This document shows positions 3,992 to 43,412 of a stretch of 64,000 bases of DNA, piece by piece; within the stretch, counting starts at the first letter, position 1, and each line of letters starts with the position of its first letter. The translations under genes were made by a program, and so were the position numbers. The notes beneath the pieces are model-generated. The model saw nothing but the letters and a program-made list of their open reading frames with translations, was not told where the DNA came from and did no database searches. The stretch is taken from NCBI GenBank assembly GCA_963718745.1, contig OY970370.1, forward strand, positions 1,479,904 to 1,543,903, in the 5' to 3' direction. Source of the DNA: Candidatus Fermentibacterota bacterium (GTDB lineage: Bacteria > Fermentibacterota > Fermentibacteria > Fermentibacterales > Fermentibacteraceae).

Positions 3992-6271
3992 CTACCGGAT
4001 CACCATGACCTGGCGGGAGACCGAGCCCGACGGCGTGTTCAGCCTGAAGAAGTAAACGCCGTTGGAGACCGTGCCGGTCTGCCACTCGACCGAGTGTTCG
4101 CCCGCGGAGAGATCGGTTGCGATTATGCTCTCGACGAGACGCCCCGTGACATCGTAGACCGCCAGGTCCACCCTGCCGGCGACGGGGTTGGAGAAGGAGA
4201 GCATGGCCGAGGTTGTAACCGGGTTGGGGGAGGGAAGACCCATCCACAGCTCGGTCATGTCACCGGCATCTCCGTCCCCGATGCCCACGCCGATCGTCCA
4301 GAAGATCGAGGCGCTCCTGCAGTTGTGCATGGAGGCTCCGGCGTGGATCGTTCCCGAGGCTGGGAGCGTGACGTTGAAGGAGACCTGGCCCGAGGCGTTC
4401 GATACGGCCTCCTCGTAGAAGGTAGGCTCGACGGCCGTACCCATGACGCCGTCGGTCAGCACCACCGTGGCGCCCTCGACCGGAACGCCCTCGGAGGTGA
4501 CGGTCAGCGCTACGGTCTGGGTGCCCGGATCGAGCTGGGCAGGGCCGCCGATGCTCAGGATGCCGTATTCGTCCATGGAGTCGAAGGTCCATATATCCAT
4601 GGCCGGATCGCCGAACCAGAAGTACATCTTGGCGTTCGCTACGCCCAGGTCCGGGTGCTGGGCGATCGTGATCTCGGTGGTCGCGCAGACGGCCTCGCCT
4701 ATCGCGAAGACGCCCGTGTCATAGATTGCCTTGTAGAGTTCCTTCATGTAGGTGTGGTTGGCCTCGGTGTAGGACGGGTCGTTCGCCGCGAGGTTGCCGG
4801 AGGAGCCGTTCGTCGCGAACTGCCAGCTCTCGGCGAGGCATTCGGACGCCTCCTGGTAGCGGCCGCAGTAGCAGGCGATGTTGAACACCGGAGGCATGAA
4901 CGTGTTGGTCAGGGCGTTGATGTTGGCTGCGTTCCAGCCGGGGCTCCACGACCACACCGTCACGTCTCCGTGACCGCGGTATCCTACCGTCCCGACGGAG
5001 TTGTTGATGGCGTCGGACACCATCTGTGCGGTTCCGCCCTCGGGAGGGTAGACCTTCGTGAATGTGATCTCGCAAAGCCCGTAGTCGTAGGATGCTATCT
5101 GGTTGCAGCAGAGCGTGTACTTGTTCGGGTACTGCTCCTCGTGGGCCGCGAGAACCGTCTCGCTCGGGGTTATGCCGGTCGTGTTCGCGTCATCGAAGGA
5201 GTACTGGAGATAGCCGTCGACGATCTTGTCGACCTGGTGCTCGATCTGTGCCACCGTGCCCGTCAGGCGGCCGACGGCGATCTCGGGGAGGAAGTCACCG
5301 CCGGTGAGGCATGCATAGTAGTGGTCTCCCACATGGGAGCCGTAGTTGTAGGAGGGCAGCTCCGCGTGGGAGCCCACGATGAGGGCGAACCGGGTGATGC
5401 CCGTTTCGTAGTTGTCGGCTATCGCGCCGTAGATCGCTCCGGGGTTCGAAGGTGTCGCCAGGACTTCGACCTGGACCTTGAGCCCCAGCCAGTTGTGCAT
5501 CTCGTAAAGAGGGGCCACTGCGGCCTGGTTCTCGGCCGTGCATACCACGATGTACTCGGCTCCGCTCCTCGTGCCGTCCGTGCGCGCGGTCGAGCGGAAG
5601 GTGCCGAAGTTGACGAGGGCATCGGACATGGCGCGCTCCATGCCCGGGGTGACGGTCTGAGAGATCATCTCGGCGTCACCTGTGAAGTCGACCCTGATCC
5701 TCATGCTGGAAGCGGCGCGAAGCTCGCCCGAGGCGACGTCGTAGCTGAACGGGTTGACCACCAGCCTGGCGCAGTGCATGCCCGCCCACGAGGCGTCCAT
5801 GTCCGTGGAGGCCCACGCGTCGGGAGTCGTCGCTCCGCGGGCGCTGTAGATCCTGTCGTTCCTCTCGAAGGGCCAGGGTGCGTGGGGCATGTCTATCTCG
5901 GCCGGCTGCCTCGGCAGGATGGAGAGGTCCTGGAAGGTGGAGTATTCGACACTCTCGACGGTCACCTCGGCGCGCGTGCCGAAGGGCAGCGCGAACATCA
6001 CCGGATAGGCGGGGAGTTCAGGGAAGCCGACCTCGCCCTGGGGGGTGCATCCGGGCATCTCCAGCCTGTCCCAGGTGGTTCCTCCGCCCGGGAAGGAGTA
6101 GAGCCAGAACCCTCCGAACGTCACGTCGGCGACGATGTGTTCCTGATCGGACTCGACGAGGCTGAAGCCAGGCGCTGCGCCTATGGCTCCGCCGGTCGAC
6201 TGCCACTGGTAGGAATCTCCCGCTGCTAGAACGAGAGTGAAAGGAATCAAGGCCAGAAGCAGATGCTTCAT
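3992..6271 (-). CDS. peptidase C25 (gingipain-like) with T9SS C-terminal sorting domain
   Basis: signal peptide MKHLLLALIPFTLVLAAG; catalytic-region motifs YRGHGD... and NIACYCG resemble RgpB His/Cys sites; C-terminal ~80 aa T9SS-type CTD (LAVYDVTGRLV...GVYFFRL). Confidence 0.8.
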   Translation of the reverse strand: MKHLLLALIPFTLVLAAGDSYQWQSTGGAIGAAPGFSLVESDQEHIVADVTFGGFWLYSFPGGGTTWDRLEMPGCTPQGEVGFPELPAYPVMFALPFGTRAEVTVESVEYSTFQDLSILPRQPAEIDMPHAPWPFERNDRIYSARGATTPDAWASTDMDASWAGMHCARLVVNPFSYDVASGELRAASSMRIRVDFTGDAEMISQTVTPGMERAMSDALVNFGTFRSTARTDGTRSGAEYIVVCTAENQAAVAPLYEMHNWLGLKVQVEVLATPSNPGAIYGAIADNYETGITRFALIVGSHAELPSYNYGSHVGDHYYACLTGGDFLPEIAVGRLTGTVAQIEHQVDKIVDGYLQYSFDDANTTGITPSETVLAAHEEQYPNKYTLCCNQIASYDYGLCEITFTKVYPPEGGTAQMVSDAINNSVGTVGYRGHGDVTVWSWSPGWNAANINALTNTFMPPVFNIACYCGRYQEASECLAESWQFATNGSSGNLAANDPSYTEANHTYMKELYKAIYDTGVFAIGEAVCATTEITIAQHPDLGVANAKMYFWFGDPAMDIWTFDSMDEYGILSIGGPAQLDPGTQTVALTVTSEGVPVEGATVVLTDGVMGTAVEPTFYEEAVSNASGQVSFNVTLPASGTIHAGASMHNCRSASIFWTIGVGIGDGDAGDMTELWMGLPSPNPVTTSAMLSFSNPVAGRVDLAVYDVTGRLVESIIATDLSAGEHSVEWQTGTVSNGVYFFRLNTPSGSVSRQVMVIR

Positions 6272-6403
6272 CCCGACGCCCCTTTCCATAAGGGTACTAC
6301 ACCCGTTCGACCCGGTCACGGTCCATCGACAGATTCAACGTACATTCTGACTCCACCGTTCCCCGGGGTCAAGGCTTCGTTGACTTGCGCCACGGGGTGC
6401 TCC

Positions 6404-7132
6404 ATGTTGCAGCACACCAAAAAGGAGGTCGCCTTGAGAAATCTGATTCTTGTCCCGATCATGGTCGCAGCGGCTCTCGCCGGACCCAGATTCGGCGGAA
6501 GGGTCGGCTACTACAGCGGCAACGATCCCAGGACCGAGGACGGAGGCAGCAGCCCGATCTTCGGAGGCCAGATCCTCCTTCCGCTCATGGAGATGGTGTC
6601 GGTCGAGCTCAGCGCGGGCTATGCCTCCACCGAGACGGACATCATGATGCAGGACTATCTCCTCAACTACATCGAGCAGGAGGAGGGCGTGAGCTTCGGG
6701 GGCGACATCGACTCCCTCAGGAGCTACCTCGAGGAGGAATGGGGCTGGACGGCTCCCGAGGAGGCCGATCTCCTCGAGAACTACACCGCGACCTTCCACG
6801 ACCTCGATCTCGCGGCCACGCTGAAGATCAACCTGCCCGTCGGCAGCATCCCCATCGAGCCATACATCGGCGGCGGCGGCGGAGCGCACATCATAGTCAG
6901 CGACGCCGACCTGCTGATCCAGTACGTGGAGCAGCAGACCGGACAGGGTTCGCCCCTGGACGTCTACGACAAGGTGCATCCCTCGGTACACGGCGTGATC
7001 GGAGCCAACTTCCAGCCCGCCATGCTGCCCCTGGGATTCTTCGCCGAGTACAGGTATGCCAGGGCGCTCGGAAACGAGGCTGCCTCCGGAGCGATCAGCA
7101 CGGTATACGCAGGTTTCAACCTGGGGTTCTGA
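6404..7132 (+). CDS. outer-membrane beta-barrel (porin-like) protein
   Basis: signal peptide MLQHTKKEVALRNLILVPIMVAAALA, C-terminal ...YAGFNLGF aromatic end; opposite-strand 630-aa ORF judged spurious. Confidence 0.5.
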   Translation: MLQHTKKEVALRNLILVPIMVAAALAGPRFGGRVGYYSGNDPRTEDGGSSPIFGGQILLPLMEMVSVELSAGYASTETDIMMQDYLLNYIEQEEGVSFGGDIDSLRSYLEEEWGWTAPEEADLLENYTATFHDLDLAATLKINLPVGSIPIEPYIGGGGGAHIIVSDADLLIQYVEQQTGQGSPLDVYDKVHPSVHGVIGANFQPAMLPLGFFAEYRYARALGNEAASGAISTVYAGFNLGF

Positions 7133-7246
7133 GGGGCCGGCAGGCATCCCCCGGCTCGGCAGGGGATTGGACGCGGCAGCGTTTATGAGCGATGATTTCA
7201 ATGTGTTTTGGATGATCGTTCGATTGAGTCCGAAGGGGGGTGCAGC

Positions 7247-8218
7247 GTGAACAGGTTTGTTCAGGTGATGTTCCTGGTCCTGTCCGTCGCCTCCGCCCAG
7301 ACCGTGATCGGGACCCTGGATGCTCCCGACACGAACATAAGCGGCCTCGCCTACGGCGGAGGATCGCTCTGGGCGGTGGACGGCGTGACCAACTATCTCC
7401 ACAGCGTCGATCCGGTCACCGGTGAAGTACTCGGCTCCTGGTACGTGGCTCCGGTATCGGGCGAAACCCCGACCGGATGCGCCTTCGGGAACAACACGGT
7501 CTACGTCGGCCTGTCCAACGACTATGTCAACATGTACAACATCTCCGGGGAGTATCAGGGCCAGTTCACCGTAGCCTGTTGAGGAAGCCAACTCTCGTCG
7601 GTGACGGGACTGGGTTCTGATGCAAGCAAGCTCTATGCGATAGGTGCAAGCAGCTACGGCTACTCGGTGGAGACATACACCTGGACGGGGACCGTCGGCT
7701 CCACTCCATATGTGAACAGCTTCACGGGTCTCGTGACCCCCTACGACTGCGACTTCAGTGGTGGACTCATCTGGACGGCATGCGACGGAGCGGACAGCCC
7801 TGTGAAGGCCTTCAACACCTCGGGCACCCTCATGAACATGATCCCCGGCGAACTCGTCGCCAACGCCGCCAGGGGTGTCGCCTTCGAGTCTGAGAACATT
7901 GTGTGGGTGAGCAATCCCGAGACGGACAAGCTCTACAGGATCGATCTCAGCCTCGGCACCGGCGGTGAGGAGGGCGGCATGGAGCCCGTCACTCTCGGCG
8001 CCAGCGCCAATCCCTTCTCGGCAACCGTCGAGATCGAGGGTTCGGGTTTCGGCGACGGAGCGACCCTCGAGATCTTCGACATGAGCGGTCGCATGATCGA
8101 GAGTGCCGCTTTCGACGGCGCTTTCTTCTGGAACGGCTCGAACGCCCCGTCGGGCGCCTACATCGTCAGGGTCGCCGACGGCGAATCGCTGGAGAGCCTC
8201 AGGCTCGTCAAGTTCTAG
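7247..8218 (+). pseudogene. secreted beta-propeller-like protein with T9SS CTD, interrupted by a single in-frame TGA at 7580-7582
   Basis: ORFs 7208..7582 and 7601..8218 are in the same frame separated only by TGA + 6 codons; N-part has signal peptide, C-part has T9SS CTD (LEIFDMSGRMIE...GAYIVRV). Confidence 0.55.
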
Positions 8219-32263: not shown

Positions 32264-32826
32264 TCCGCACCTCCATCGATGTGATTCTGCCCTGAAACAG
32301 TATCTGAGTCAATGGCATCGATTTCGGACCGCAGACCATCCTGTTCCTGGAGCGTCGACCAGGCACGACCCTGAGATGTGGTGCAGGAGGGGTGGCAAAC
32401 CCGGGCATCTGACCGGCTGACACCGGATCCTCGTCATTTGTCTTCCGCCGATGCTCCCGGGGGGACCTCGGAAACAGCTCCAGGTCGGTGACATTCTCCA
32501 GGGTGACCGGATCAGCTGCATCTGGTGCAGGCTGTCAGGTAGTCCTGAGCGCCCGGGATTTGGTGATCCACGGCCACCCCTCACAGTCAGTGTGTTCCTG
32601 CGCCAATCGAGCGGAGCTACTTCACGAGGTCTTCCACGAAAGAATAAGTATTATCTCTAGAAGAGGCGATGGTTTCAGGAACTTCGAGAACTACAGACTG
32701 AGAGTGCGAGCACTGTGCTGCTAAACTGGACCAGTGCCCCTGTTAATGGTGTAGATCCTGCAGATCTACCTGATTGAGTGGTACACCGGCCTTTGGTCCA
32801 GTCGAACCAGCTCAGAGTCATCCTTC

Positions 32827-33111
32827 ATGCTGCGTATCCCCAGACCTGACATCAGGATAGCACAGCAGAAGACCCGCTGCTACCGCAACCCGGTCATCTT
32901 CGCGATGGAGCTCCAGGCCGAGATGAGCACGGACCATCTGACAAGGCAGCAGCTCGCGGACAGGCACGGGATCTCCCTCGACCGGGTGATCCAGTGGCTA
33001 GCTCTGCTCAAGCTTCCCCAGGCACAGCTCGAGGAGATCAAGGTGCTGGGGGATCACTGGGAGCATCGGGTCGTGACGGAGCGGGAGCTGCGGAGAAGAA
33101 GATCCAACTGA
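32827..33111 (+). CDS. small ParB-type HTH protein, cassette 1
   Basis: LTRQQLADRHGISLDRVIQWLALLKLPQAQLEEI matches ParB/Spo0J HTH (LT.EELA.R.G.S...V.N.LRLL.LP); paralogs at 34825 and 41345; true start uncertain (conserved core begins MELQAEM). Confidence 0.5.
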   Translation: MLRIPRPDIRIAQQKTRCYRNPVIFAMELQAEMSTDHLTRQQLADRHGISLDRVIQWLALLKLPQAQLEEIKVLGDHWEHRVVTERELRRRRSN

Positions 33112-33284
33112 CTCCGTGATGGAAGCCAGTCAACTCATTGATCTAGGACGGTATCTCTCCCAGTCGAAGAAACCAGTGCGGGTACTGTCTTCCCCTCTTC
33201 CTAGCTCCGGATCGTGTTTCGGATCAGAGGTTGCCTCGTCCGAGGCGGTGGGCTATCTCTTTGCATCATGACTGGAGGGTGTGA

Positions 33285-34562
33285 ATGAAGCCGTTGCTCG
33301 CACTCGCGCTCATCTTCTCCCTCTCCCATGCGGAAATCGAAGTGGCGGAGCTGTTCCGGGCCGAGACGCTGGAGGAGCTCGAAGCCGCCCTTGTCGATGG
33401 CTACCCGATGCCGTGGCTGGCTGAAGTCCTCGCCGACTCCACAATCCCCGAGGATGACCGCTACTGGCTGGACTGCAGGATGAGGGCAGTCATCGCCCAG
33501 GACATGCACCTGTTCTTCGACAGAAATGGTGATCCAGTTCACGTTGAGGCTGAATGGATCGCACCCGGCGAAGACTACTGGCGTGAGAACTTCATGGTAA
33601 ATGCAGATGGAGCCGAATCCCTGTACGACCGATCAGATCAGCCGACCAATGTAGTTTCTGAACCCGGTGTTCTGGTCGATCGCTTCGGAGAGGAGATCGG
33701 CGAGCTTGCGATGATACACCGGGGGGTCAGGTTGAGCAGGGATGCCAGCATCGGTGTTACCCTATCCGGACGACACAACGAACCCGGCTGCCCGGTAACA
33801 ATGCCGCGCCTGTGTTTTGCCTGCCTTCTCTTCCCCGATGGTTCCTTCAGGGAAACGCAAATCGGTTACGCTGGGTACTCCAATTTCGCGATCAGCAACG
33901 ATGGTAGCCGGATCGTCGTTGAGACTGAAGTCCCTCGAGATTCGGATCTCGGAGAGGCGTACACCGGGTTGGTCTTCCTGCTCGATCGGGAAGGAAGCAT
34001 CGTAGCCCGTTTCCCGATGGCGGACGGGATCATGGGTGGAGCGCCTGCTGTCTCGGCTACCGGCAGATACGTGGCGTGCAGACAGAACTCGATACCCGAA
34101 AGAGGGGTCTTCCTCCTCGATGGGGAAACTGGTCAACTCCTCTATCGATTCAGAGAAGACGTGGTCGGGCACGACTTAACGTTTTCTCCCAACGAACAGT
34201 ATCTGTGCATCGGAGGTCTCTATAGGCCAGTAGTCTTCGACTGTCTTGATCGTGAGGAGATATGGTCTGTTACCCCCTCCGATCTTGATGTTGACGAGCC
34301 TGTTCTTCGCCCTGGCTATTGTGCAGATGATGGGCAAACGTTTGTGTTCAGTTCACTACAAACTCACCCGATGCGTTTCGGTACGATGATCTTCAGAGGA
34401 GACAGTCGCCCTATTGAATGGGATTCTACTAGAGGGGTCATCCAGGTATCCCCTAACGGCGCTTGCACCTTCGCTCAGTGCTACGATGCGGTAGAGCCCA
34501 ACTCCTGGAACGACTTCCTGTGCGTTCCAGTGATCGTGAACCAGCTCGAAGGTGGTGAGTAG
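33285..34562 (+). CDS. secreted PD40/TolB-like beta-propeller protein, cassette 1 (conserved N-domain, variable C-region)
   Basis: RBS GGAGGGTG; signal peptide MKPLLALALIFSLSHA; first ~90 aa near-identical to 35742 and 41860 paralogs. Confidence 0.7.
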   Translation: MKPLLALALIFSLSHAEIEVAELFRAETLEELEAALVDGYPMPWLAEVLADSTIPEDDRYWLDCRMRAVIAQDMHLFFDRNGDPVHVEAEWIAPGEDYWRENFMVNADGAESLYDRSDQPTNVVSEPGVLVDRFGEEIGELAMIHRGVRLSRDASIGVTLSGRHNEPGCPVTMPRLCFACLLFPDGSFRETQIGYAGYSNFAISNDGSRIVVETEVPRDSDLGEAYTGLVFLLDREGSIVARFPMADGIMGGAPAVSATGRYVACRQNSIPERGVFLLDGETGQLLYRFREDVVGHDLTFSPNEQYLCIGGLYRPVVFDCLDREEIWSVTPSDLDVDEPVLRPGYCADDGQTFVFSSLQTHPMRFGTMIFRGDSRPIEWDSTRGVIQVSPNGACTFAQCYDAVEPNSWNDFLCVPVIVNQLEGGE

Positions 34563-34565
34563 AGG

Positions 34566-34745
34566 ATGAAGACGACCATCATCGCTCTCGTTCTATGCGG
34601 AACTGCCTTCTGCATCCCCTGCCACTGGGTGCGACTCCCGATGCCCAGGACTCGACGCACACGATCATGCCCGTCTACGGCGATTAACACGCTCCATTCG
34701 GAATCGACCTGACGGACAGACCCATCAGGTGTCGACGATCCGCTT
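34566..34745 (+). pseudogene. degraded 5' remnant of a paralog of the 37061 large surface-protein gene
   Basis: MKTTIIALVLCGTAFC... aligns to 43079 remnant but with indels/frameshifts; THT..H.YGDY..PFGIDLTD similarity to N-terminus of 37061 protein lost to frameshift. Confidence 0.4.
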
Positions 34746-34824
34746 GTCAGCTTGGACCAGTGCCCCACTTAATGGCGGAGAACCAGAACCTAAATCCCTG
34801 TATGGCAACTATTTGTAAGGAATA

Positions 34825-35160
34825 ATGTGGTACACCGGCCTTTGCTCCAGTCGAACCAGCTCAGGGCCATCCTTCATACTGCGTATCCCGAGACCTGACA
34901 TCAGGATAGCCCCGCCCAGGACCCGTCTCTACCGCAACCCGGTCATCCTCTCGATGGAGCTCCAGGCCGAGATGAGTACGGACCAACTCACGAGGCAGCA
35001 GCTGGCCGATAGACACGGGATCTCCCTCGATCGTGTGATCCAGTGGCTGGCCCTGCTGAAGCTGCCCGAGACGAAGATCAAGGAGATCGTGGCGCTGGGA
35101 GACTACTGGGAGCGGCGTCTTGTGACGGAGAGGGAGCTGCGGAGAAAGAGAACCAACTGA
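34825..35160 (+). CDS. small ParB-type HTH protein, cassette 2
   Basis: paralog of 32827 and 41345 (MELQAEMSTDQLTRQQLADRHGISLDRVIQWLALLKLPETKIKEI). Confidence 0.5.
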   Translation: MWYTGLCSSRTSSGPSFILRIPRPDIRIAPPRTRLYRNPVILSMELQAEMSTDQLTRQQLADRHGISLDRVIQWLALLKLPETKIKEIVALGDYWERRLVTERELRRKRTN

Positions 35161-35572
35161 CTCCGTGACGGAAGCCAGTCATCTCTTTGATGTAGGACGG
35201 CATCTCTCCCAGTCGAAGAAACAAGACGTTTCCTTCGGATTGTTGCAGCACGAGCGCAAGTCTGTTTTATACCTGTCTTCGTATACGAAATTCACCATCT
35301 CAGCACAGTTGGATGAAATGCGGAATTGGGAGTGCGTATCCTTCAGTGGCATGCCGCTTCTCTAGCCTTCCTGTGTGGTGTTGTAAATGTAGACAAGGTA
35401 AAATTTTATCTGGACTCTGCGACCGCGCTGGGTCAAAGACTCGAAGCAGTCTATCTTGCATGACGGCCCTTGACGCGGATACATGAGTGAATGAGCATAC
35501 CCCTGTCTTGTCTGACATGCTCGAAGGAGAGTGCGTGAGACGGCACGAAAACAGCATCATCCATGAAAGCGC

Positions 35573-35642
35573 CTACCTACCTACCTACCTACCTACCTAC
35601 CTACCTACCTACCTACCTACCTACCTACCTACCTACCTACCT
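35573..35642. repeat. tetranucleotide simple-sequence repeat (CTAC/TACC)x~17
   Basis: 70 nt of perfect CTAC units ~100 bp upstream of the 35742 start; single TACC in equivalent position of cassettes 1 and 3. Confidence 0.9.
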
Positions 35643-35741
35643 GTCTTCCCCTCTTACTAGTTCCGGATCGTATCCAGCATCTGTGTTTGCCTCGAAGGAG
35701 GCCATGGGGTATCTCTGTACAGACGGACCTGGAGGGTATGA

Positions 35742-37061
35742 ATGAAAGCATTTCTCGCCCTGGCAGTTCTCTTCTCCCTCTCCCATGCAGACATCGAAGT
35801 GACGGAGCTGTTCCGGGCGGAGACGCCCGCCGAGCTCGAAGCTGCCCTTGTCGACGGCTACCCGATGCCATGGCTGGCTGAGGTCCTCGCAGACTCCACC
35901 ATCCCGGAGGAGGACCGCTACTGGCTGGACTGCCGGATGAGAGCGGCGATTGCCCGCGATCTCAACCTCTTCTTCGATCGGGACGGGAACCGTGTCGAGG
36001 TCGAGTGTGACTATATGCATCCGGGTGAGAGCTACTGGCGCGAGCACTTCATCGTGAATCCTCTCGGCGAGTCGTTCCGATACGACACTCAAGATCGCCC
36101 TGCTGACGTTCCATACCTGGAGATGGAGGCGCAGCCGGGGTACATCCTGAACTTGTACGGTGAACGAGTGGGAGACATCGCTATCACCCGCGACAGGGTG
36201 TGGCTGTCGCGGGACGCCTCGGTGGGGATCTTCAGGACTGGTAATACCGATGGAATCAGCTACAATCGTGCCTGCTTCCTGTACCCCGACGGATCGTTCC
36301 GGGAGCAGCCGATTGATCCGGTGTTCGTCCAGTACGCTCTGAGCCAGGACGGGAATGTAGCTGTATTCTGCTCAAGATCGCAACATGTGCCTGAAGAGAG
36401 AAACCAGGAGGAATGGGAGTGGATGGTGTATGCCTTCGACCATGAAGGCGATCTCATTTTCGAGAAACTCGCACCATATGATCCGCTATCTGGTTCGGCT
36501 ACGCCAGCGATCTCGCCGGACAGCCGGTATATAGCTATCCCCTTCGGGACAGGCTCTGTCTGGTTGCTCGATGCTCGTACCGGAGATGTGATCCATATGT
36601 GGGGTGGGACTCCTGAAAACATGGTTAGCGGGAGCAACCTCTACTTCACACAGGACAGCAGATACCTTTGTGCCGGTAGCGTGATGGTCTTCGACTGCGA
36701 GACAGGAGAACGGATTCTCAAGGTCGGCACAAGCGCGCCGTACACACAGACTTCCGAAGGCTTCCTAGAGAGAGGGCGCAACACTTGTATGGCCAGCAAC
36801 GGAGCTAGGCTGGTTAGCAACATCTTCTGGACGAACTTCCGCCCAATCGAATTTGCCCCTTACATTTACACTTCGACTGTCGAGCTGCGGGACCAGAATG
36901 CCAACCTGTTCTATTCGGAATCGTGCGACTGGCTGCCGTTCATGTCGCCGAACGGAGAATTCCTCTTAGGGGAGAAGTACAATTCCCTCTTCTTCGGAGG
37001 TTCTGGATCAGACGCTTCGTCCACTCCGCTTGCGATCATGCGCCTCCTGGAGGTGGAGTAA
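35742..37061 (+). CDS. secreted PD40-like beta-propeller protein, cassette 2
   Basis: RBS GGAGGGTATGA; signal peptide MKAFLALAVLFSLSHA; 5' ~270 nt near-identical to 41860 copy; stop overlaps start of 37061 gene (TAATG). Confidence 0.7.
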   Translation: MKAFLALAVLFSLSHADIEVTELFRAETPAELEAALVDGYPMPWLAEVLADSTIPEEDRYWLDCRMRAAIARDLNLFFDRDGNRVEVECDYMHPGESYWREHFIVNPLGESFRYDTQDRPADVPYLEMEAQPGYILNLYGERVGDIAITRDRVWLSRDASVGIFRTGNTDGISYNRACFLYPDGSFREQPIDPVFVQYALSQDGNVAVFCSRSQHVPEERNQEEWEWMVYAFDHEGDLIFEKLAPYDPLSGSATPAISPDSRYIAIPFGTGSVWLLDARTGDVIHMWGGTPENMVSGSNLYFTQDSRYLCAGSVMVFDCETGERILKVGTSAPYTQTSEGFLERGRNTCMASNGARLVSNIFWTNFRPIEFAPYIYTSTVELRDQNANLFYSESCDWLPFMSPNGEFLLGEKYNSLFFGGSGSDASSTPLAIMRLLEVE

Positions 37062-40000
37062 TGAAACTGTTCTATGCACTCACCACAGCGGCGCTGATCT
37101 TCTCTGCTTCAGCCTTCGCCACTGATCCCGTGATTTGGCCGATGAGCCCTCAGGGAGGGACTCATACACTCTTCCACAGCTTTGGAGACTACCATACGCC
37201 ATGGATGAATGCATGTGCCGACTCAACGAATTTCCACTTCGGCATCGACCTCACCGATCCGACGCCCTCGGCTGTCGATGATGCTGCTGAAGCAGTCTAT
37301 AGCGTGCGTACCGGATATGTGCGAGATGTGTTCTATCCCGAAGGAGTAACCCCTGATGCCCCGATGGCGCACGACAACTATGGGATCGTGATCTGCGACG
37401 AGTACCAGCAGCAGACCGGTTTCGGCTGGTGCCTCCAGCACATTGAGGACTACCTGTACACCGGAGGGGGCTTGGAAAACAACCCCTGGTCGCCAGACAG
37501 TATGTACACTAACAACTTCTTCGTTGAAACGGCACGTCTTGGCGACATCGACAACGATGCCTTCAGCCAGGGTGGCGCCACCTGGACTGACGATCACCTG
37601 CACTTCATGAGAAGCGCCTACACATACAATCCCGCACATCCAGGATACCTAAACCCTCTCTTCTATCTCGACCCTGCGCCGGTCGAGGGCAGCAGTCCCT
37701 TCTTCGACTGGTCATGGGATAGCGGGACTGGAATTCCCTACGGGTTCTTCGTGATCCCTCAGTACTCGGCTCTTAACGACTGGGAAACCGAGTGGGCGAC
37801 ACCTGCTGCGTGCAAGAGCGAGATTGACTCATTCGAGAGCATAATCAGCGGAGCTGTCGATCTGGTTCTTTTGATGCATGTGGAAGGTGAAGGTGTAACG
37901 GGAAGCACTCCTCCCTTCAGCTGCATGCCGCAGCGACTGGAGTGGTGGGTGGAGAGATGGGACGCATCCACGAACGCCTGGGTTGAGGTCGAGGACATCA
38001 ACGGAATCCCGTATCACAGATATCCTTTCGACTTCGGGGATATCGAGCTGGGAGGCTCCTCGGACTGGGAGCGGTACAAGCAGATCTATTTCAGGTTCGA
38101 TGCTTTCGACTTTTTCAGTAGTGCCTCTGCAGGGAGCATGTGCTGCCTCACGAACTGCAGTGATAATGATTCTTGGGACGGTATAGAGAACATCGAGGAG
38201 AACTGGTGGCAGACCAACGTCGATAAGGAGCAGGTCGGACCGACGATTGTGGCGGAGGAGATGCTGTTTCCTGATGGGCAGTACAGGATTGCAATCAGGC
38301 CCTGGGTATTCAATGGAACGACACCAGTCGCACTGACTCCGGCCTATGCGCTTGTCGATCTTCACAACAGCAGCCCGGTCGCGCATGCGGCCGAGATTCT
38401 GAGCCCTGCGAAGGGCACGATTTGGTCAGCGCACTGGGAGGCTGTGGAGGTCGTCGACGGTCTTGAGGTCGAGTTCGTCGTCCAGGAGGATGAGCCCGTA
38501 GAGGCAGGGCAGACGCTGGCAGCGACGATCGTGTTTTCGGAGCCGATGAACACCGCGTCGGGAAGCTATTCGATAACGGCTGGCAAGGCTCCGGATTATG
38601 ACGATCTGGAGGTCACGACTACGGGTTGGAGTTGCACTAACAACCCTGCACCGTACTACGATACCTGGTCAGGAACGATCGAGGTCCCCGAGACAGGGAT
38701 ATCGGGGAGGATCATCCTGCGTATCGAAGCAGAGGATACTGATGGCAACTGCTTGAAGGATCCCGCGGATGCCTTCCCGTCGGATGACGAGTATTCCGAT
38801 CTCTACCATGGCTTCGGGATAGCGTTTGGTGCGGAGCCTGGGTGGAGTGCAACGCTCCACGGTGGAGTCTATGGTTCTCCGTGTCTTGGGGATCTCGACG
38901 GCGATGGGGACCTGGACGTGGTTATCCAGAGCAAGGATGGGTGGATCAACTGCCTGGACGACACCGGGGCGCAGTTCAGCGGTTGGCCTCAGAATGGCGG
39001 CTGGGTGCCTTCTTGGACGAAGACATACAGCTCGGTTTCACTATCCGATCTGGATCAGGACGGATCACTCGAAATCCTTGCGACCAATCCCTATGGATGC
39101 AGGGCATACGAACTGGACGGGACGTATACCAGCTATCTCAATTCGAACTACTCTCACTTCAGCAAGGCATCACCTGCTGTGGGCGACGTAGACGGTGACG
39201 ATTTGCTGGAAGTCGTGCTCGGCCGGGTGGATGACGGGCAGGGCTCGGCCATGCCGTCAGTAATCTGCCTGGAGAACGACCTTACATTGAAGTGGACGAA
39301 GCTCTACTCGGGGCTGTTCGGAGAGATGCCGATACTGGCGACACCTGCTGTCGGTGACATCTCGAGCAGCCACACGGGTAACGAGATAGCAATTGCGACA
39401 GGGCAGGATTTCATCGAGGGTTATCCTTACCTGGAGACTGACACGGGGTATCCCAACTGGGTCCGACTTCTCGACGGTTCGGGGAACACGCTCTGGACGT
39501 CGGCGGACTACCTGTGCCAGTTCTGGGCGTCGCCGGTGGTGGGAGACATCGACGGGGACGAGATAAACGAGGTGGTAATAGGAAGCACCACCAACTGGGA
39601 CGACGGGAAGAAGGTGTTCGTGCTTAACGGGAACACCGGGGCGCTTGAACACACATGGACCGTTGGCAACTGGGTACTGCATCCGGCGGCACTCGCCGAT
39701 CTTGACGATGACGGCGTGCTTGATGTGATCGTGGCCTGCAACGACCACAAGGTGTACGCCTGGTCGGGCGACACTCATCAAGCCTTGTCAGGATATCCGG
39801 TGGATCTCGGATCACTAGTAGGAAGTCCTTCGGTGGCTGACATAGATGGCGACTTTGACCTTGAGGTTGTGGTAGGCACGTCGGCAGGAGAGCTTTGGGC
39901 GTTGAATCCAGATGGATCGACCTGCACAGGATTCCCGGTAGCTGATGGGACCTATTTCAGAGGGTCACCTGCGATGGGCGATCTGGATGGAGACGGGTGC

Positions 40001-41185
40001 CTGGAGGTTCTGATCGCCGACCAGACTGATGCAACCGCGTACTGCTACGACATGGGCTCGGGTTCGTTCCCGTGCGAGATGCCGTGGCGTCAGTTCCAGC
40101 ATGATTCGTGGCACAGCGGGTGCTTCGAGGCGGATAACACGGTACCTGAGGCTCCGACGGATCTGGACGCGATAGTGACGTACAACGAGTACGGCTACAC
40201 AGCAGACCTGACATGGGACCTGTCGGTGAATGATCCGTACTCGCCCGATCCGGAGGATCCTGCGGATGTTGTCAGTTACCAGATCTACAGGGCGTTTCCT
40301 CCGAGTACGTACACGATCCTCAGCCGCAGTCATGCGGGTGAGGGATACTACACGGACGAGTGCCCCGACCCGCAGGGCACGGTGGTCAGATATGTGGTTA
40401 CCGCCTCCGACGGGACGAACGAGTCGGAGTACAGCAACGAGGTGAGGTTCAGGACGGTGCCTGGGCTTAACCTCGCGGCCGGCTGCCATGTGACCGAGGA
40501 GCTGACCAGCGGAGTACGCACCAGTGTTGAGGTATCTGCTGGCTCGCACGGCATGGCGAGGATCAGTGATACCGGATCCATGTCGACGGCAGGTACTGCA
40601 ACCGGAGCGAAGCTCCTCACGGACGGAGAGACGGAAGACGTCTACATCCCCGGTGCCGGTGTGCGGGCTGTCGTGATAGACCTGGGCTGCAGCTGCCTCA
40701 TCGGGCAGGTTGATCTGATGGAGGCACGCGCTGAGGCGTCTGCCTCGATGGCCGATCCTTCGGTGATCGAGGTATCGGCCGACGGGACGGCCTGGGCGGC
40801 GCTGGGCGCGCAGAGGGCGACTGCCGGAACGGCGGGCAGATATGTCAGGATAAGCCCTGCGCCGATCACGTCCGAGGTCTTCGTCTGGGGTAACTGGACA
40901 GCGGAAGAGGATGAAGAGTCAGTGATCGGCATGGAGAGGATCGATGGCCGCTGGAACCTCGAGATGCCCGTGCTTGACGATGCTTCCTCGGGAGAGATCG
41001 GAACCTTGAGTTTGTATGACGTAACGGGTCGCGTTCTGAGGAGCTGGAGCGCCCGCCCGGGCGAGGAAGTGGACTGGGACGGCCGGACGGCATCAGGCAT
41101 GCAGGTCACTCCCGGCTGCTACTTCGTTCGCTATGAGCAGGGCGGTGAAGCCGTCACGAGGAGGCTCCTGGTAACTGCGGAGTAG
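37061..41185 (+). CDS. large surface protein: N-terminal M23-like domain (HFGID...HLH), FG-GAP repeats, FN3-like domain, T9SS C-terminal sorting domain
   Basis: 1375 aa from ATG 37061 (signal peptide MKLFYALTTAALIFSASAFA); >=8 D.DGDG FG-GAP repeats; CTD LSLYDVTGRVLRS...GCYFVRY. Confidence 0.8.
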   Translation: MKLFYALTTAALIFSASAFATDPVIWPMSPQGGTHTLFHSFGDYHTPWMNACADSTNFHFGIDLTDPTPSAVDDAAEAVYSVRTGYVRDVFYPEGVTPDAPMAHDNYGIVICDEYQQQTGFGWCLQHIEDYLYTGGGLENNPWSPDSMYTNNFFVETARLGDIDNDAFSQGGATWTDDHLHFMRSAYTYNPAHPGYLNPLFYLDPAPVEGSSPFFDWSWDSGTGIPYGFFVIPQYSALNDWETEWATPAACKSEIDSFESIISGAVDLVLLMHVEGEGVTGSTPPFSCMPQRLEWWVERWDASTNAWVEVEDINGIPYHRYPFDFGDIELGGSSDWERYKQIYFRFDAFDFFSSASAGSMCCLTNCSDNDSWDGIENIEENWWQTNVDKEQVGPTIVAEEMLFPDGQYRIAIRPWVFNGTTPVALTPAYALVDLHNSSPVAHAAEILSPAKGTIWSAHWEAVEVVDGLEVEFVVQEDEPVEAGQTLAATIVFSEPMNTASGSYSITAGKAPDYDDLEVTTTGWSCTNNPAPYYDTWSGTIEVPETGISGRIILRIEAEDTDGNCLKDPADAFPSDDEYSDLYHGFGIAFGAEPGWSATLHGGVYGSPCLGDLDGDGDLDVVIQSKDGWINCLDDTGAQFSGWPQNGGWVPSWTKTYSSVSLSDLDQDGSLEILATNPYGCRAYELDGTYTSYLNSNYSHFSKASPAVGDVDGDDLLEVVLGRVDDGQGSAMPSVICLENDLTLKWTKLYSGLFGEMPILATPAVGDISSSHTGNEIAIATGQDFIEGYPYLETDTGYPNWVRLLDGSGNTLWTSADYLCQFWASPVVGDIDGDEINEVVIGSTTNWDDGKKVFVLNGNTGALEHTWTVGNWVLHPAALADLDDDGVLDVIVACNDHKVYAWSGDTHQALSGYPVDLGSLVGSPSVADIDGDFDLEVVVGTSAGELWALNPDGSTCTGFPVADGTYFRGSPAMGDLDGDGCLEVLIADQTDATAYCYDMGSGSFPCEMPWRQFQHDSWHSGCFEADNTVPEAPTDLDAIVTYNEYGYTADLTWDLSVNDPYSPDPEDPADVVSYQIYRAFPPSTYTILSRSHAGEGYYTDECPDPQGTVVRYVVTASDGTNESEYSNEVRFRTVPGLNLAAGCHVTEELTSGVRTSVEVSAGSHGMARISDTGSMSTAGTATGAKLLTDGETEDVYIPGAGVRAVVIDLGCSCLIGQVDLMEARAEASASMADPSVIEVSADGTAWAALGAQRATAGTAGRYVRISPAPITSEVFVWGNWTAEEDEESVIGMERIDGRWNLEMPVLDDASSGEIGTLSLYDVTGRVLRSWSARPGEEVDWDGRTASGMQVTPGCYFVRYEQGGEAVTRRLLVTAE

Positions 41186-41217
41186 AACAGACAGAACGGG
41201 TGAAGACCCGCAATAAC

Positions 41218-41243
41218 AGCCGGGCGGCCTTCGGGCCGCCCGG
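41218..41243 (+). terminator. GC hairpin GCCGGGCGGCC-TTCG-GGCCGCCCGGC downstream of large gene (no U-tract)
   Basis: 11-bp stem with UUCG tetraloop 33 nt after stop. Confidence 0.35.
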
Positions 41244-41344
41244 CCTGCATCAGGGAAATCCCGGAGAGAAAGGCTCAGCACGAAAGCCGGCGTGTTCAGC
41301 CAAGGCAAGATCATTCTTACTGGCTGTCTGGCAACAACATATAT

Positions 41345-41716
41345 ATGATTTGCTGGTACACCGGCCTTTGGTCCAGTCGAACCAGCTCAGGGTCATCCTT
41401 CATGCTGCGTATCCCGAGACCTGACATCAGGATAGCACAGCAGAAGACCCGCTGTTACCGCAATCCGGTCATCTTCGCGATGGAGCTCGAGGCCGAGATG
41501 AGCACGGACCAACTGACCAGGCGGCAGCTCGCGGATCGACACGGGATCTCCCTCGACCGGCTGATCCAGTGGCTGGCTCTGCTGAAGCTGCCGACGGAAC
41601 AGCTCGAGGAGATCGCCGCTCTGGGGGATTACTCGGGAAAGCCGGTGGTTACGGAGAGGGAGTTGAGGAGAAGAAGATCCAACCGTCTCCGTGATGGAAG
41701 CCAGTCAACTCATTGA
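41345..41716 (+). CDS. small ParB-type HTH protein, cassette 3
   Basis: paralog of 32827 and 34825. Confidence 0.5.
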   Translation: MICWYTGLWSSRTSSGSSFMLRIPRPDIRIAQQKTRCYRNPVIFAMELEAEMSTDQLTRRQLADRHGISLDRLIQWLALLKLPTEQLEEIAALGDYSGKPVVTERELRRRRSNRLRDGSQSTH

Positions 41717-41859
41717 TCTAGGACGGGATCTTTCCCAGTCGAAGAAACCAGTGCGGGTCCTGTCTTGCACTCTTCCTAGCTCCGGATCGTGTCCAGCATC
41801 GTGATTGCCTCGACGGAGGCCATGGGGTATCTCTGTACAGACGGACCTGGAGGGTATGA

Positions 41860-43077
41860 ATGAAAGCATTTCTCGCCCTGGCAGTTCTCTTCTCCCTCTC
41901 CCATGCAGACATCGAAGTGACGGAGCTGTTCCGAGCGGAGACGCCCGCCGAGCTCGAAGCTGCACTCGTCGACGGCTACCCGATGCCGTGGCTGGCTGAG
42001 GTCCTCGCAGACCCCTCGATCCCCGAGGAGGACCGCTACTGGCTGGACTGCAGGATGAGGGCGGTCATCGCCCAGGACCTGCACCTGTTCTTCGACGAGG
42101 AAGGTAGTCCTGTACGGATTGATGCCGACTGGATCTGGCCTGGGGAGGACTACTGGCGTGAATGTTTCAGCATCAACAGGGACGGGGTTGATGACCCATT
42201 CGATGTGTCAAATCAACCCACCGGCAATTGGGGAGGTCAGGGCTACGTATCTGACAGATACGGAAACAACCTCGGACCTCTCGCTATCTGTCCAATTCCG
42301 AGGTACAACTCATGCATGTCCCGCGACGGATCTGTATCGATCACGCTTAGCGGTATACAGGACAATAACTTCGGGCCCGGACTCATGAACCTGTGCTTTC
42401 TAGGGGAAGACGGCAGTTTCAGCGAATTCCAATTGCATGGATGGTTCACCAAGTATGCGATGAGTCAGAGTGGTAATCTGGTCGTTGCATCATGTTACGA
42501 CAGACGGCGTGAAGTGGCCAGAGACCAACGAATACACCGTATCCTTGTATTCGATGGAGAAGGAAGTCTCCTTTACGAACTGAACCAGCCTGACTCACCG
42601 CACTTTGAACAGGGTTCGCCACTGATCTCGCCAGATGACCGATACATAGCGATTCCTTTCCGTGGATCAAGACCGATGGTTCTTCTCGACGCCGCTTCTG
42701 GAGAGGAGCTTCACGTATGGCCCGACATGCTGGGAGCGACCAAGCATTTCTCAGCCAATTCGAGGTATCTGAGCTTCTGCAACACATCATCGGGGATGGT
42801 CGTGGATTGCATATCGGGTGAAGTCGTATGGAGAGGCTATGACGGGGTAAGAGAGATCTTTTCTTCCAATGACGGTCGACTCGTCTGCTGGATGGGAGAA
42901 GGTTCCTGGACCAACCTCGTGGATCTGGAAGAGGGTATCTCCATCGACAGCATCTGCCAGGGAAGACCGACTCTGTCTCCGAATGCGTTCTTCCTAATCG
43001 CACAGAGAAGCGTGTCTGGCAGCCTGATCCCTGACGACCTCTCGTTCTTCGCCGCCCGCATCGAAGCAGGTGAGTAG
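41860..43077 (+). CDS. secreted PD40-like beta-propeller protein, cassette 3
   Basis: signal peptide MKAFLALAVLFSLSHA; conserved N-domain then divergent repeats (ISPDDRYIAIPF..., FSANSRYLSF...). Confidence 0.7.
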   Translation: MKAFLALAVLFSLSHADIEVTELFRAETPAELEAALVDGYPMPWLAEVLADPSIPEEDRYWLDCRMRAVIAQDLHLFFDEEGSPVRIDADWIWPGEDYWRECFSINRDGVDDPFDVSNQPTGNWGGQGYVSDRYGNNLGPLAICPIPRYNSCMSRDGSVSITLSGIQDNNFGPGLMNLCFLGEDGSFSEFQLHGWFTKYAMSQSGNLVVASCYDRRREVARDQRIHRILVFDGEGSLLYELNQPDSPHFEQGSPLISPDDRYIAIPFRGSRPMVLLDAASGEELHVWPDMLGATKHFSANSRYLSFCNTSSGMVVDCISGEVVWRGYDGVREIFSSNDGRLVCWMGEGSWTNLVDLEEGISIDSICQGRPTLSPNAFFLIAQRSVSGSLIPDDLSFFAARIEAGE

Positions 43078-43078
43078 G

Positions 43079-43335
43079 ATGAAGACGACCATCATCGCTC
43101 TCGCTCTATGCGGAACTGCCTTCTGCTTTCCCTGGCCGCTGGGTGCGTCTCCCGATGCCCAGGACTCTACGCACACGATCATGCACGTCTACGGCGACTA
43201 TCACACTCCATTCGGAATCGACCTGACGGACAGACCCATCGGGTGTCGACGATCCGCGTGTCAGCTTGGACCAGTGCCCCAGTTAATGGCAAAGAACCTA
43301 AATCCCTGTATGGCAACAAGTTGTAAGGAATTTTG
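43079..43335 (+). pseudogene. 5' remnant (signal peptide + ~60 aa) of a paralog of the 37061 large-protein gene, truncated at the tRNA junction
   Basis: MKTTIIALALCGTAFCFPWPLGASPDAQDSTHTIMHVYGDYHTPFGIDLTD... similar to N-terminus of 37061 protein; ORF runs into tRNA sequence. Confidence 0.4.
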
Positions 43336-43412
43336 TGGTACGCCCGCCAGGAGTTGAACCCGGAACCTTCTGGTCCGTAGCCAGACGCTCTATCCAGTTG
43401 AGCTACGGGCGC
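43336..43412 (-). tRNA. tRNA-Arg (anticodon ACG)
   Basis: 77 nt GCGCCCGTAGCTCAACTGGATAGAGCGTCTGGCTACGGACCAGAAGGTTCCGGGTTCAACTCCTGGCGGGCGTACCA folds into cloverleaf; anticodon loop CUACGGA; encoded CCA. Confidence 0.8.

Follow-up and report, generated by a model that had tools for sequence, protein, structure and literature searches.

In this work, we have analysed 64,000 nucleotides (64 kb) of contig OY970370.1, from a Candidatus Fermentibacterota bacterium, as one window, to which all coordinates refer. Our subject is a perfect tetranucleotide tract, (CCTA)17.75, that lies upstream of a two-gene operon for predicted secreted proteins in the second of three tandem gene cassettes. The tract and the two operon genes are listed here, with the contigs and genomes of relatives given by L numbers.

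35572..35642, plus strand: perfect tetranucleotide tract (CCTA)17.75, seen by Tandem Repeats Finder, in the repeat census, as an extreme of composition and through homologous tracts in L004, L005-L010 and L019/L012
35742..37061, plus strand: first operon gene; the product is a secreted protein of 439 aa that has a signal peptide and, at its N-terminus, a conserved domain of about 100 aa, besides a variable beta-propeller of the 7-bladed WD40-like type
37058..41185, plus strand: large operon gene, for a 1375-aa protein with FG-GAP repeats and a signal peptide, its start overlapping the upstream stop (ATGA)

Tandem Repeats Finder reports a single array at 35572-35642, with a period of 4, 17.8 copies, 100% matches and 0 indels, and in its context the tract reads GCG(CCTA)17CCT-GTCTTCC, which makes 71 nt. 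An earlier, sequence-only reading of this DNA had described a perfect tract of about 17 units at 35573-35642; its perfection is borne out, and its start moves by one base to 35572. The gap between the tract end and the ATG at 35742, put at about 100 bp in that reading, counts 99 nt. With 17.75 perfect units over 71 nt, the tract has the length of a slippage-prone contingency locus. Such tracts had also been called rare by chance, and in a census of simple sequence repeats (SSRs) with units of 1-6 nt over the 64-kb window it is indeed the sole tetranucleotide repeat with at least three units, the runner-up being (CGG)5 and the homopolymers all being of 7 nt or less. The sense strand of the tract is 50% C and holds no G, the antisense strand being (TAGG)n. 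It is the longest G-free run of the window (71 nt, against 25 nt for the second-longest), and its C-over-G excess of 0.50 is the window maximum among 78-nt stretches, for which the 99.9th percentile is 0.346. The CCTA tract cannot be of chance origin.

Is the tract read as part of a protein? In the frame of the main ATG, a TAG at 35658 and a TGA at 35739 stand directly upstream of 35742, and with these in-frame stops the gene cannot extend N-terminally through the tract. A frameshift switch within a coding sequence was likewise not found, given these stops and the lack of conservation of the upstream open reading frames (uORFs) that span the tract. Exact look-ups of the 439-aa protein and of a flanking 310-aa protein returned no identical record, the exact pattern of the left junction had 0 matches among genome contigs, and a tract-plus-motif pattern had 0 matches among viral contigs. 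A search with PTYL, the peptide that the tract encodes, gave 104 matches, all of them imperfect low-complexity peptides without similarity in the flanks. As an origin of (CTAC)n we considered that the leader motif AATACTACCTG, or CCCTACATTACCC of related clades, had expanded, but the alignment is too divergent to decide.

The AlphaFold2 model of the 439-aa protein has a pLDDT (predicted local distance difference test) of 82, and its matches in the PDB are generic WD40/BamB folds only. Nearly all the names of its 163 homologs point to Fermentibacterota, the named ones being almost entirely Candidatus Fermentibacteria, Aegiribacteria, Sabulitectum or Fermentibacter. The large gene had been read as coding for 1420 aa; its start is most likely the ATG at 37058, because this ATG overlaps the upstream stop and a signal peptide follows, and the product then has 1375 aa. 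It matches Pfam FG-GAP_3 at 4e-19, and a C-terminal sorting domain of the type IX secretion system (T9SS; TIGR04183) scores 18.3 bits, under the cut-off of 23; the earlier label of T9SS cargo, like that of surface proteins for the operon products, is plausible, though below threshold. The N-terminal 'HFGIDL' of the large protein was tried as an M23 peptidase motif and had no Pfam support even at E <= 5. The pair of propeller gene and large gene also occurs in L004, L060/61 and L054. In L003 (1488-2605, minus strand), genes for a transposase of the insertion sequence family IS3 (HTH_Tnp_1, rve) directly follow the propeller gene, at the position where the large gene would start.

Repeats upstream of the gene family in related genomes

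We fetched the contigs that encode the closest homologs, ran a pattern scan over 241 million metagenome records and a protein-based scan over the genomes of GTDB species; the Logan assemblies among them were built with k = 31. In L004 (SRR33586835; 84% protein identity), a (CTAC)7.5 tract of 30 nt lies 98 nt before the ATG, in the same layout as in cassette 2 of the window: the end of a helix-turn-helix (HTH) gene, a homologous upstream module, the tract, the ATG and both operon genes. In the contigs L005-L010 (79% identity), which come from six different sequencing runs, the first 30 nt, exactly, are CCTA repeat, and the ATG follows 99 nt further on. Since they start with k-1 bases of pure repeat, the assembly graph was broken there and their tracts measure at least 31 nt. 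The metagenome pattern scan added L012, a SPAdes contig with a resolved (CTAC)9.5 tract of 38 nt, and the protein-based scan supplied L019, a metagenome-assembled genome (MAG) of Fermentibacteria with the same tract of 38 nt, 96 nt upstream of a family member that is 40% identical overall. L012 and L019 are 100% identical over 4238 nt, and for this reason we count them as one lineage. A further metagenome match, L011, was set aside as an unrelated low-GC chance match.

A CCTA tract is therefore present 96-99 nt upstream of the orthologous ATG in the window and in three independently assembled Fermentibacterota lineages. The four tracts are all uninterrupted, while their flanks are 65-88% identical, and their lengths at this one position are 71 nt in the window, 30 nt in L004, 38 nt in L019/L012 and at least 31 nt in L005-L010. 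Whole-protein divergence among the tract-bearing lineages is 12-21%, with L019 more distant. The sequence-only reading had proposed comparison with relatives as a check, and among them the tract proves to be present in three lineages, at differing lengths. We estimate that a neutral stretch of 38 nt at about 70% identity would remain intact with a probability of about 1e-6, and the intact tracts amid diverged flanks imply that the repeat is maintained, either by ongoing slippage with homogenisation or by selection. The module and the tract are both missing from L001/L002 (88% identity) and from cassettes 1 and 3 of the window. In L012, about 380 nt upstream of its (CTAC)9.5 tract (reverse complement, about 1720-1790; about 3440-3510 in L019), there are five direct copies of CCGTCCGATTCC, which resemble iterons or an array of binding sites.

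In the lower-GC MAGs of the phylum that came from the protein scan, the family gene is preceded by long homopolymers, G8-G13 or C9-C12, at these loci.

Family genes with G8-G13 or C9-C12 upstream: L013, L016, L017, L018, L023, L025, L026
The same, continued: L027, L033, L034, L037, L039, L040, L042

For the G runs (8-13 nt), the context is TTGTAx-CT-Gn-TAACCC-TACAWT and the distance to the ATG about 95-115 nt; the C runs (9-12 nt) are farther from the ATG, at about 170-190 nt, and directly follow a TTGACA. In the 156.6 kb of DNA that we fetched, a census counted 13 G/C runs of at least 8 nt, and all 13 lie upstream of a family member: 12 are upstream of the queried gene, and the other is the G10 of L025, 96 nt upstream of the second tandem family member. 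Upstream regions of family genes make up about 6% of this DNA, from which we infer a chance probability below 1e-12 for such a placement. Some of the runs fall within predicted promoters, as does the C9 of L017 (TTGACA-18-TAAATT, 10/12) and the G9 of L034 (TTGTAA-17-TACAAT, 9/12). In the G-type context the spacer equals 8 + n, or 16-21 nt for G8-G13. Interrupted tracts occupy the corresponding site in L028, L029, L031, L041 and L043 and look like locked variants. Because three different repeat motifs precede one gene family, selection would appear to act on repetitiveness, that is on mutability, and not on a binding sequence.

These loci have features of their own besides the runs. L025 (4001-8310) is another case of family genes in tandem: upstream of the first copy the region is of a different kind, with a degenerate G4, while the second copy (6072-7352) carries the complete upstream module, G10 included, and precedes a homolog of the large gene; arrays with one repeat-equipped copy may be a recurring layout. 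The C-type loci L017, L018, L024, L028, L031, L035, L037, L039 and L041 share the leader GCACTGGTCTTATCCCAGTCAAAGGGCAATACTACCTGAAAGGAG, about 90-150 nt before the ATG, in which ACTGG and CCAGT could pair as a hairpin and a CTACCTG motif is reminiscent of the window tract at its 3' junction. In L013, L023, L025, L026, L034 and L043, a strongly conserved TTGATT-16-TATAAT (10/12) lies about 165-190 nt upstream of the G-tract, and G-type loci thus seem to hold two tandem promoter-like elements. Pairing of the G-tract with an invariant CCUCC in the G-type leaders was predicted, and it was discarded for absence of covariation.

Candidate control elements around the tract and the cassette island

The elements between which the tract lies, and the larger units of which it forms part, are as follows.

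35470..35498, plus strand: distal promoter-like element, candidate P2, TTGACG-17-GAGCAT, 8/12 matches (read by eye), where the block in common with L019 has its left edge
35643..35741, plus strand: conserved block from tract to ATG, from alignments of all cassettes
35663-35670, plus strand: CCGGATCG, within the conserved proximal block
35687-35692 / 35710-35715, plus strand: proximal promoter candidate P1, TTGCCT-17-TATCTC, by homology to L027
35689-35702, plus strand: hairpin/palindrome GCCTCGAAGGAGGC, from RNAalifold and pair counts
35731-35736, plus strand: Shine-Dalgarno sequence GGAGGG, in the conserved block
35226..35639, plus strand: non-coding upstream module of 414 nt, in cassette 2 only and absent from cassettes 1 and 3
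34954..35160, plus strand (open reading frame open from 34825): gene for a small HTH protein (68 aa, counted from MELQAEM) that comes first in each cassette
32779..43348, plus strand: three-cassette tandem island of lower GC, from composition, repeats, tRNA and boundary alignment
43336-43412, minus strand: tRNA-Arg(acg), whose 3' end is the last copy of a 13-nt core

In the high-GC clade, a block of about 100 nt before the ATG is kept in all copies of the gene, and the cassettes that lack the tract retain it too. Its invariant elements are CGGATCG; TTGCC and TATCTCT, 17/18 nt apart; a palindrome or hairpin in that spacer; GGAGGG; and TGAATGAA. We read this block as a candidate proximal promoter, P1, with a short leader. 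P1 (TTGCCT-17-TATCTC) begins 44 nt downstream of the tract. Its counterpart in a family-wide alignment is TTTACA-18-TATCAT of L027, a TG-extended promoter (10/12) some 30 nt upstream of the ATG there. On the other side of the tract, the block common to the window, L004 and L019 begins at CTTGAC, and in L019 the site homologous to P2, TTGACA-18-CATACT, is the only sigma-70-like match (10/12), 67 nt upstream of the tract. Alignments and promoter scans together place the tract between a P2-like and a P1-like element. No pair of -35 and -10 hexamers flanks its 71 bp, and it is not a promoter spacer. In the predicted leader RNA, the tract is unpaired in both the minimum-free-energy and the centroid structures, and the folding energy of the leader is -57.9 kcal/mol against -67.2 +/- 4.4 kcal/mol for shuffles (z = +2.1), that is, it folds worse than shuffled sequence. 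A hairpin of the kind formed by the Haemophilus hmw repeats was ruled out, since the tract is predicted to be unpaired.

The window has a GC content of about 64%, and in it lies an island of 55-59% GC, at roughly 32.4-43.4 kb, which ends at the tRNA-Arg(acg) gene. The 13-nt core TGGTACRCCSGCC, identical to the 3' end of this tRNA, bounds the cassettes in four copies (32779, 34828, 41354 and 43336), and a conserved sequence of about 45 nt precedes three of the four. A cassette is made up of three genes, for a small HTH protein, for a protein of 405-439 aa and for a large protein. As the sequence-only reading had it, only cassette 2 keeps the full operon: the large gene is complete there, and cassettes 1 and 3 hold stubs of about 220 nt of its 5' end. 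For cassettes 1 and 3, that reading gave one TACC as the counterpart of the tract, which the three-cassette alignment corrects. A 414-nt segment (35226-35639) is exclusive to cassette 2 and ends in the tract, and the cassettes without it show an (A/C)CTGTC junction, in the forms TGCGGGT-ACTGTC and TGCGGGT-CCTGTC. The segment is 85% identical to L004, and its last 100 nt or so before the tract are 70% identical to L019; a coding role was rejected, as no open reading frame is conserved between the window and L004.

The small HTH protein gives a weak HTH_ParB match (E 0.006, below the cut-off), its paralogs in cassettes 1 and 3 are 76-81% identical to it, and it is a possible candidate for a cassette-specific regulator. 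Directly after its stop codon, a hairpin (35150-35181) is conserved in all three cassettes; it is terminator-like in the scan on the minus strand only, and it may separate the transcription units of the HTH gene and the operon. An Rfam scan of 32-44 kb found the tRNA only, and no integrase was found within the cassettes. The island looks like a set of integrase-less cargo cassettes, inserted by site-specific recombination and mobilised in trans. The similarity among the cassettes is a mosaic, with 89% shared by the HTH genes of cassettes 1 and 3, 92% by the 5' ends of the propeller genes of cassettes 2 and 3, and 92-95% by the large-gene stubs of cassettes 1 and 3, and this suggests recombination among them. 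The L001 contig (Logan SRR8925737_1144403, 1-2305) has identical first and last 30 nt (k-1), so that its tract-less cassette (88% protein identity) assembles as a circle or tandem unit of 2275 bp, and cassettes 1 and 3 are of comparable size (2049 and 1982 bp). The L001 unit could be an excised cassette circle or a tandem array.

The tract as a candidate expression switch

What might the tract do? To judge by its sequence, the structural features of an SSR contingency locus are present: the repeat is long and perfect, it lies upstream of the gene and its length is polymorphic among lineages. We think it probable that the tract is a selected mutational expression switch and, a little less firmly, that it is a hypermutable SSR acting as a contingency control, of phase or of 'volume', on the secreted-protein operon of the complete cassette. 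The sequence-only reading had already pointed to slipped-strand phase variation; the same repeat at the same position in three further lineages, with differing lengths, favours this part of it, and the size of 71 bp excludes the variant in which the tract would be the spacer of a promoter.

We propose that slipped-strand mispairing during replication would add or remove CCTA units, as the biology of SSRs and the length differences between lineages suggest. Transcripts from P2 would then cross about 71 nt of G-free, C-rich and unstructured (CCUA)n before reaching the operon, and the length of the tract would set the share of distal transcription or translation that arrives there. The most plausible routes would be loading of Rho on a rut-like (Rho utilization) tract, or altered folding of the leader. 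The tract is the most rut-like stretch of the window, and the RNA made from it would have the composition for Rho loading, being long, C-rich, G-free and unstructured. As a second possibility, a change in unit number would alter the distance and the helical phase between upstream elements and the proximal promoter. Action in the 5' leader is a possibility that we favour only tentatively, action through the spacing of the distal promoter seems unlikely, and action by other routes would come as a surprise. The outcome to be expected would be graded expression and not a clean ON/OFF.

A number of observations limit the case for a switch of this kind or weigh against it. A consensus scan for sigma-70-type promoters over 34700-35900 of the window called none, and for this reason the assignments of P1 and P2 rest on homology to better sites in relatives. 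RNAalifold finds three pairs of the proximal hairpin maintained through changes on both sides, and its covariation of 0.284 exceeds that of shuffles (0.193 +/- 0.017; 0/500 reach it) and of slid partners (<=0.112), but it rests on 8 related sequences and a palindrome in the DNA would give an identical signal. Since the tract-less cassettes keep the proximal block, the tract would be dispensable for basal expression. Comparisons within strains, which cover sister tracts through contigs encoding identical proteins and in which consensus sequences hide minority alleles, gave equal lengths: C12 in four assemblies for P0060, G10 in two MAGs that are 99.98% identical for P0005, (CTAC)9.5 in two assemblies possibly made from the same reads, and, for P0063, a distant paralog in Ca. 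F. daniensis, a short G7 that is invariant in nine assemblies. Identical consensus lengths weigh mildly against extreme instability. Finally, our literature search found no precedent that joins Rho-dependent termination to SSR phase variation, and the Rho step is a conjecture. Beside the stable cases there is L056 (Logan SRR30024181_776826), which starts inside the C-tract of P0060, at C11 against the C12 of the four assemblies. Because this contig starts within the tract at k = 31, the graph of that sample branches there, and the branch fits mixed C11/C12 alleles, or else a sequencing error.

The best surviving alternative to a switch, though rather unlikely in our judgement, is that the tract is a neutral microsatellite that arose once in the non-coding upstream region of the clade's ancestor and has since changed its length by slippage alone, with expression unaffected. 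The stable consensus lengths of the sister tracts are in its favour, as are the tract-less cassettes 1, 3 and L001 with their conserved proximal block, and slippage by itself tends to keep long tracts homogeneous. It does not predict, however, that four lineages with flanks of only 65-88% identity would all keep the tract 96-99 nt from the ATG, nor that the same family would independently bear other types of SSR upstream, where all 13 long G/C runs lie, some of them in promoter spacers. The genome is also not generally prone to microsatellites, as the window holds no other long SSR.

Distinctly less probable is an element of fixed function, whether as a docking site for a protein with affinity for CCTA/TAGG DNA or CCUA RNA, as a constitutive Rho-loading site or insulator against read-through out of the upstream HTH gene, or as a sequence that folds into a structure, for instance weak two-tetrad G-quadruplexes on the (TAGG)n template strand. 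Length differences among the lineages would then be of no consequence. Two-tetrad G-quadruplexes would be only marginally stable. The strictly conserved orientation, with the C-rich strand as the sense strand, the extreme composition and the location of the tract, which divides the HTH gene and the distal module from the operon, would all suit such an element. Lengths of 30-71 nt among the lineages are nevertheless hard to square with a binding site of set architecture, related clades have runs of G or C in its place, so that CCTA is not conserved across the family, and the RNA has no predicted structure.

That the tract moves the stop of a uORF as units are gained or lost, and so alters translational coupling to the operon, is very improbable. 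The tract is open in three sense frames (PTYL, LPTY and YLPT); in the window, an ATG at 35563 opens a uORF of 60 codons across the tract, whose stop, TGA 35743-35745, overlaps the main ATG (ATGA), and in L019 a GTG-initiated reading frame through the tract also ends at the ATG. An invariant TGAATGA puts stops in two frames at the main start codon. Reading frames span the tract in every lineage, but they differ in start, frame and stop among the window, L004 and L019, the window ATG is not conserved in L004, TGAATGA is also present in the tract-less cassettes, and no Shine-Dalgarno sequence is evident before 35563. An assembly artefact of the tract or of its copy number is hardly credible: short-read de Bruijn assemblers do break or collapse at such tracts, as in L005-L010, and the 30 nt of L004 equal k-1, yet independent projects and assemblers (Logan, SPAdes and a MAG) show a homologous tract, and since the independent contigs L004 and L019/L012 cross such a tract with both flanks homologous to the window, the junction is no artefact and only the exact unit number, which in the window depends on the assembly method, could be wrong.

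Returning to the tract as an expression switch, we also considered a broader form of it, in which the island would be an array of integrase-less cassettes inserted at the tRNA-Arg 3' end, each with a variant propeller gene whose 5' region is conserved, and a single one with the whole regulatory module and operon. Recombination among cassettes (one expression copy with partial copies) and SSR switching would together make a two-layer system of surface variation, such as pathogens have, throughout the phylum, with (CCUA)n as a length-dependent Rho-loading site in the leader, a mechanism so far undescribed. As a whole, this is speculative, and we regard it as doubtful indeed.

Known repeat switches and significance for the phylum

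SSR contingency loci have been documented overwhelmingly in host-adapted pathogens and commensals, and in Bacteroidales phase variation proceeds mainly through invertible promoters, not SSRs. Homopolymer switches in promoter spacers are known from Bordetella fim (poly-C) and from Neisseria meningitidis opc (poly-C) and porA (poly-G). The paralogs L017 (C9) and L034 (G9), which hold their runs inside predicted -35/-10 spacers, resemble these switches, whereas the 71-bp tract of the window cannot be a spacer and would be a different solution, at a nearby position, within the same family.

Among the closest known analogues is Moraxella catarrhalis uspA2, with (AGAT)n 132 bp upstream of the ORF, for which 6-23 units have been reported and 13-18 in tabulated genomes, and where expression is graded with repeat number and not ON/OFF (PMC7302503). 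Both loci have a tetranucleotide tract of similar size upstream of the ORF of a surface protein (here so labelled). They differ in motif, organism and lifestyle, as uspA2 belongs to a human-adapted pathogen and has a measured effect and the present tract is known from sequence alone, and also in the proximal promoter-like block that stands here between tract and gene. In Haemophilus influenzae, the (ATCTTTC)n repeats of hmw1A/hmw2A lie in the 5' untranslated region, between the promoter or promoters and the ORF of a large secreted-adhesin operon; they are transcribed in the leader, and more repeats give lower expression (PMC12721329). The position of the CCTA tract, between promoter-like elements and the ORF of a secreted-protein operon, is similar, with the promoters here being predicted. 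Unlike the hmw repeats, which have a unit of 7 nt and form a long hairpin with a G-rich arm that is cleaved by RNase III, the CCTA tract has a unit of 4 nt, is G-free and is predicted to be unpaired. The (TAAA)n of N. meningitidis nadA lies upstream of the core promoter of the adhesin gene, between repressor operators, and its repeat number shifts the spacing of NadR operators and IHF to the promoter, which results in several levels of expression (PMC2791445). Here too, a tetranucleotide tract lies upstream of a (predicted) core promoter and a gene for a small HTH protein, possibly a regulator, adjoins the locus; the CCTA tract is much longer than typical nadA tracts, and its promoters are predicted only. 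The three systems share the graded outcome that we would expect of the present one.

We found no paper that links Fermentibacterota or Fermentibacteria with phase variation. Members of the phylum were first described from anaerobic digesters, and the description of Ca. Fermentibacter daniensis, with genomes of about 64% GC, makes no mention of it (PMC5030696). Among environmental bacteria, some are predicted from surveys to have restriction-modification genes with SSRs (PMC7383803). The principle of SSR switching is established; what is noteworthy is the phylum, the free-living setting and the pattern across a whole gene family.

The tracts break short-read assemblies at the regulatory region, as in the six Logan contigs that end in the repeat, so that such loci are fragmented and missed in MAGs. 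If the tracts do switch, stochastic variation of secreted or surface proteins would be a conserved strategy in this uncultured phylum, for which phage, predators and antagonistic neighbours would be plausible drivers.

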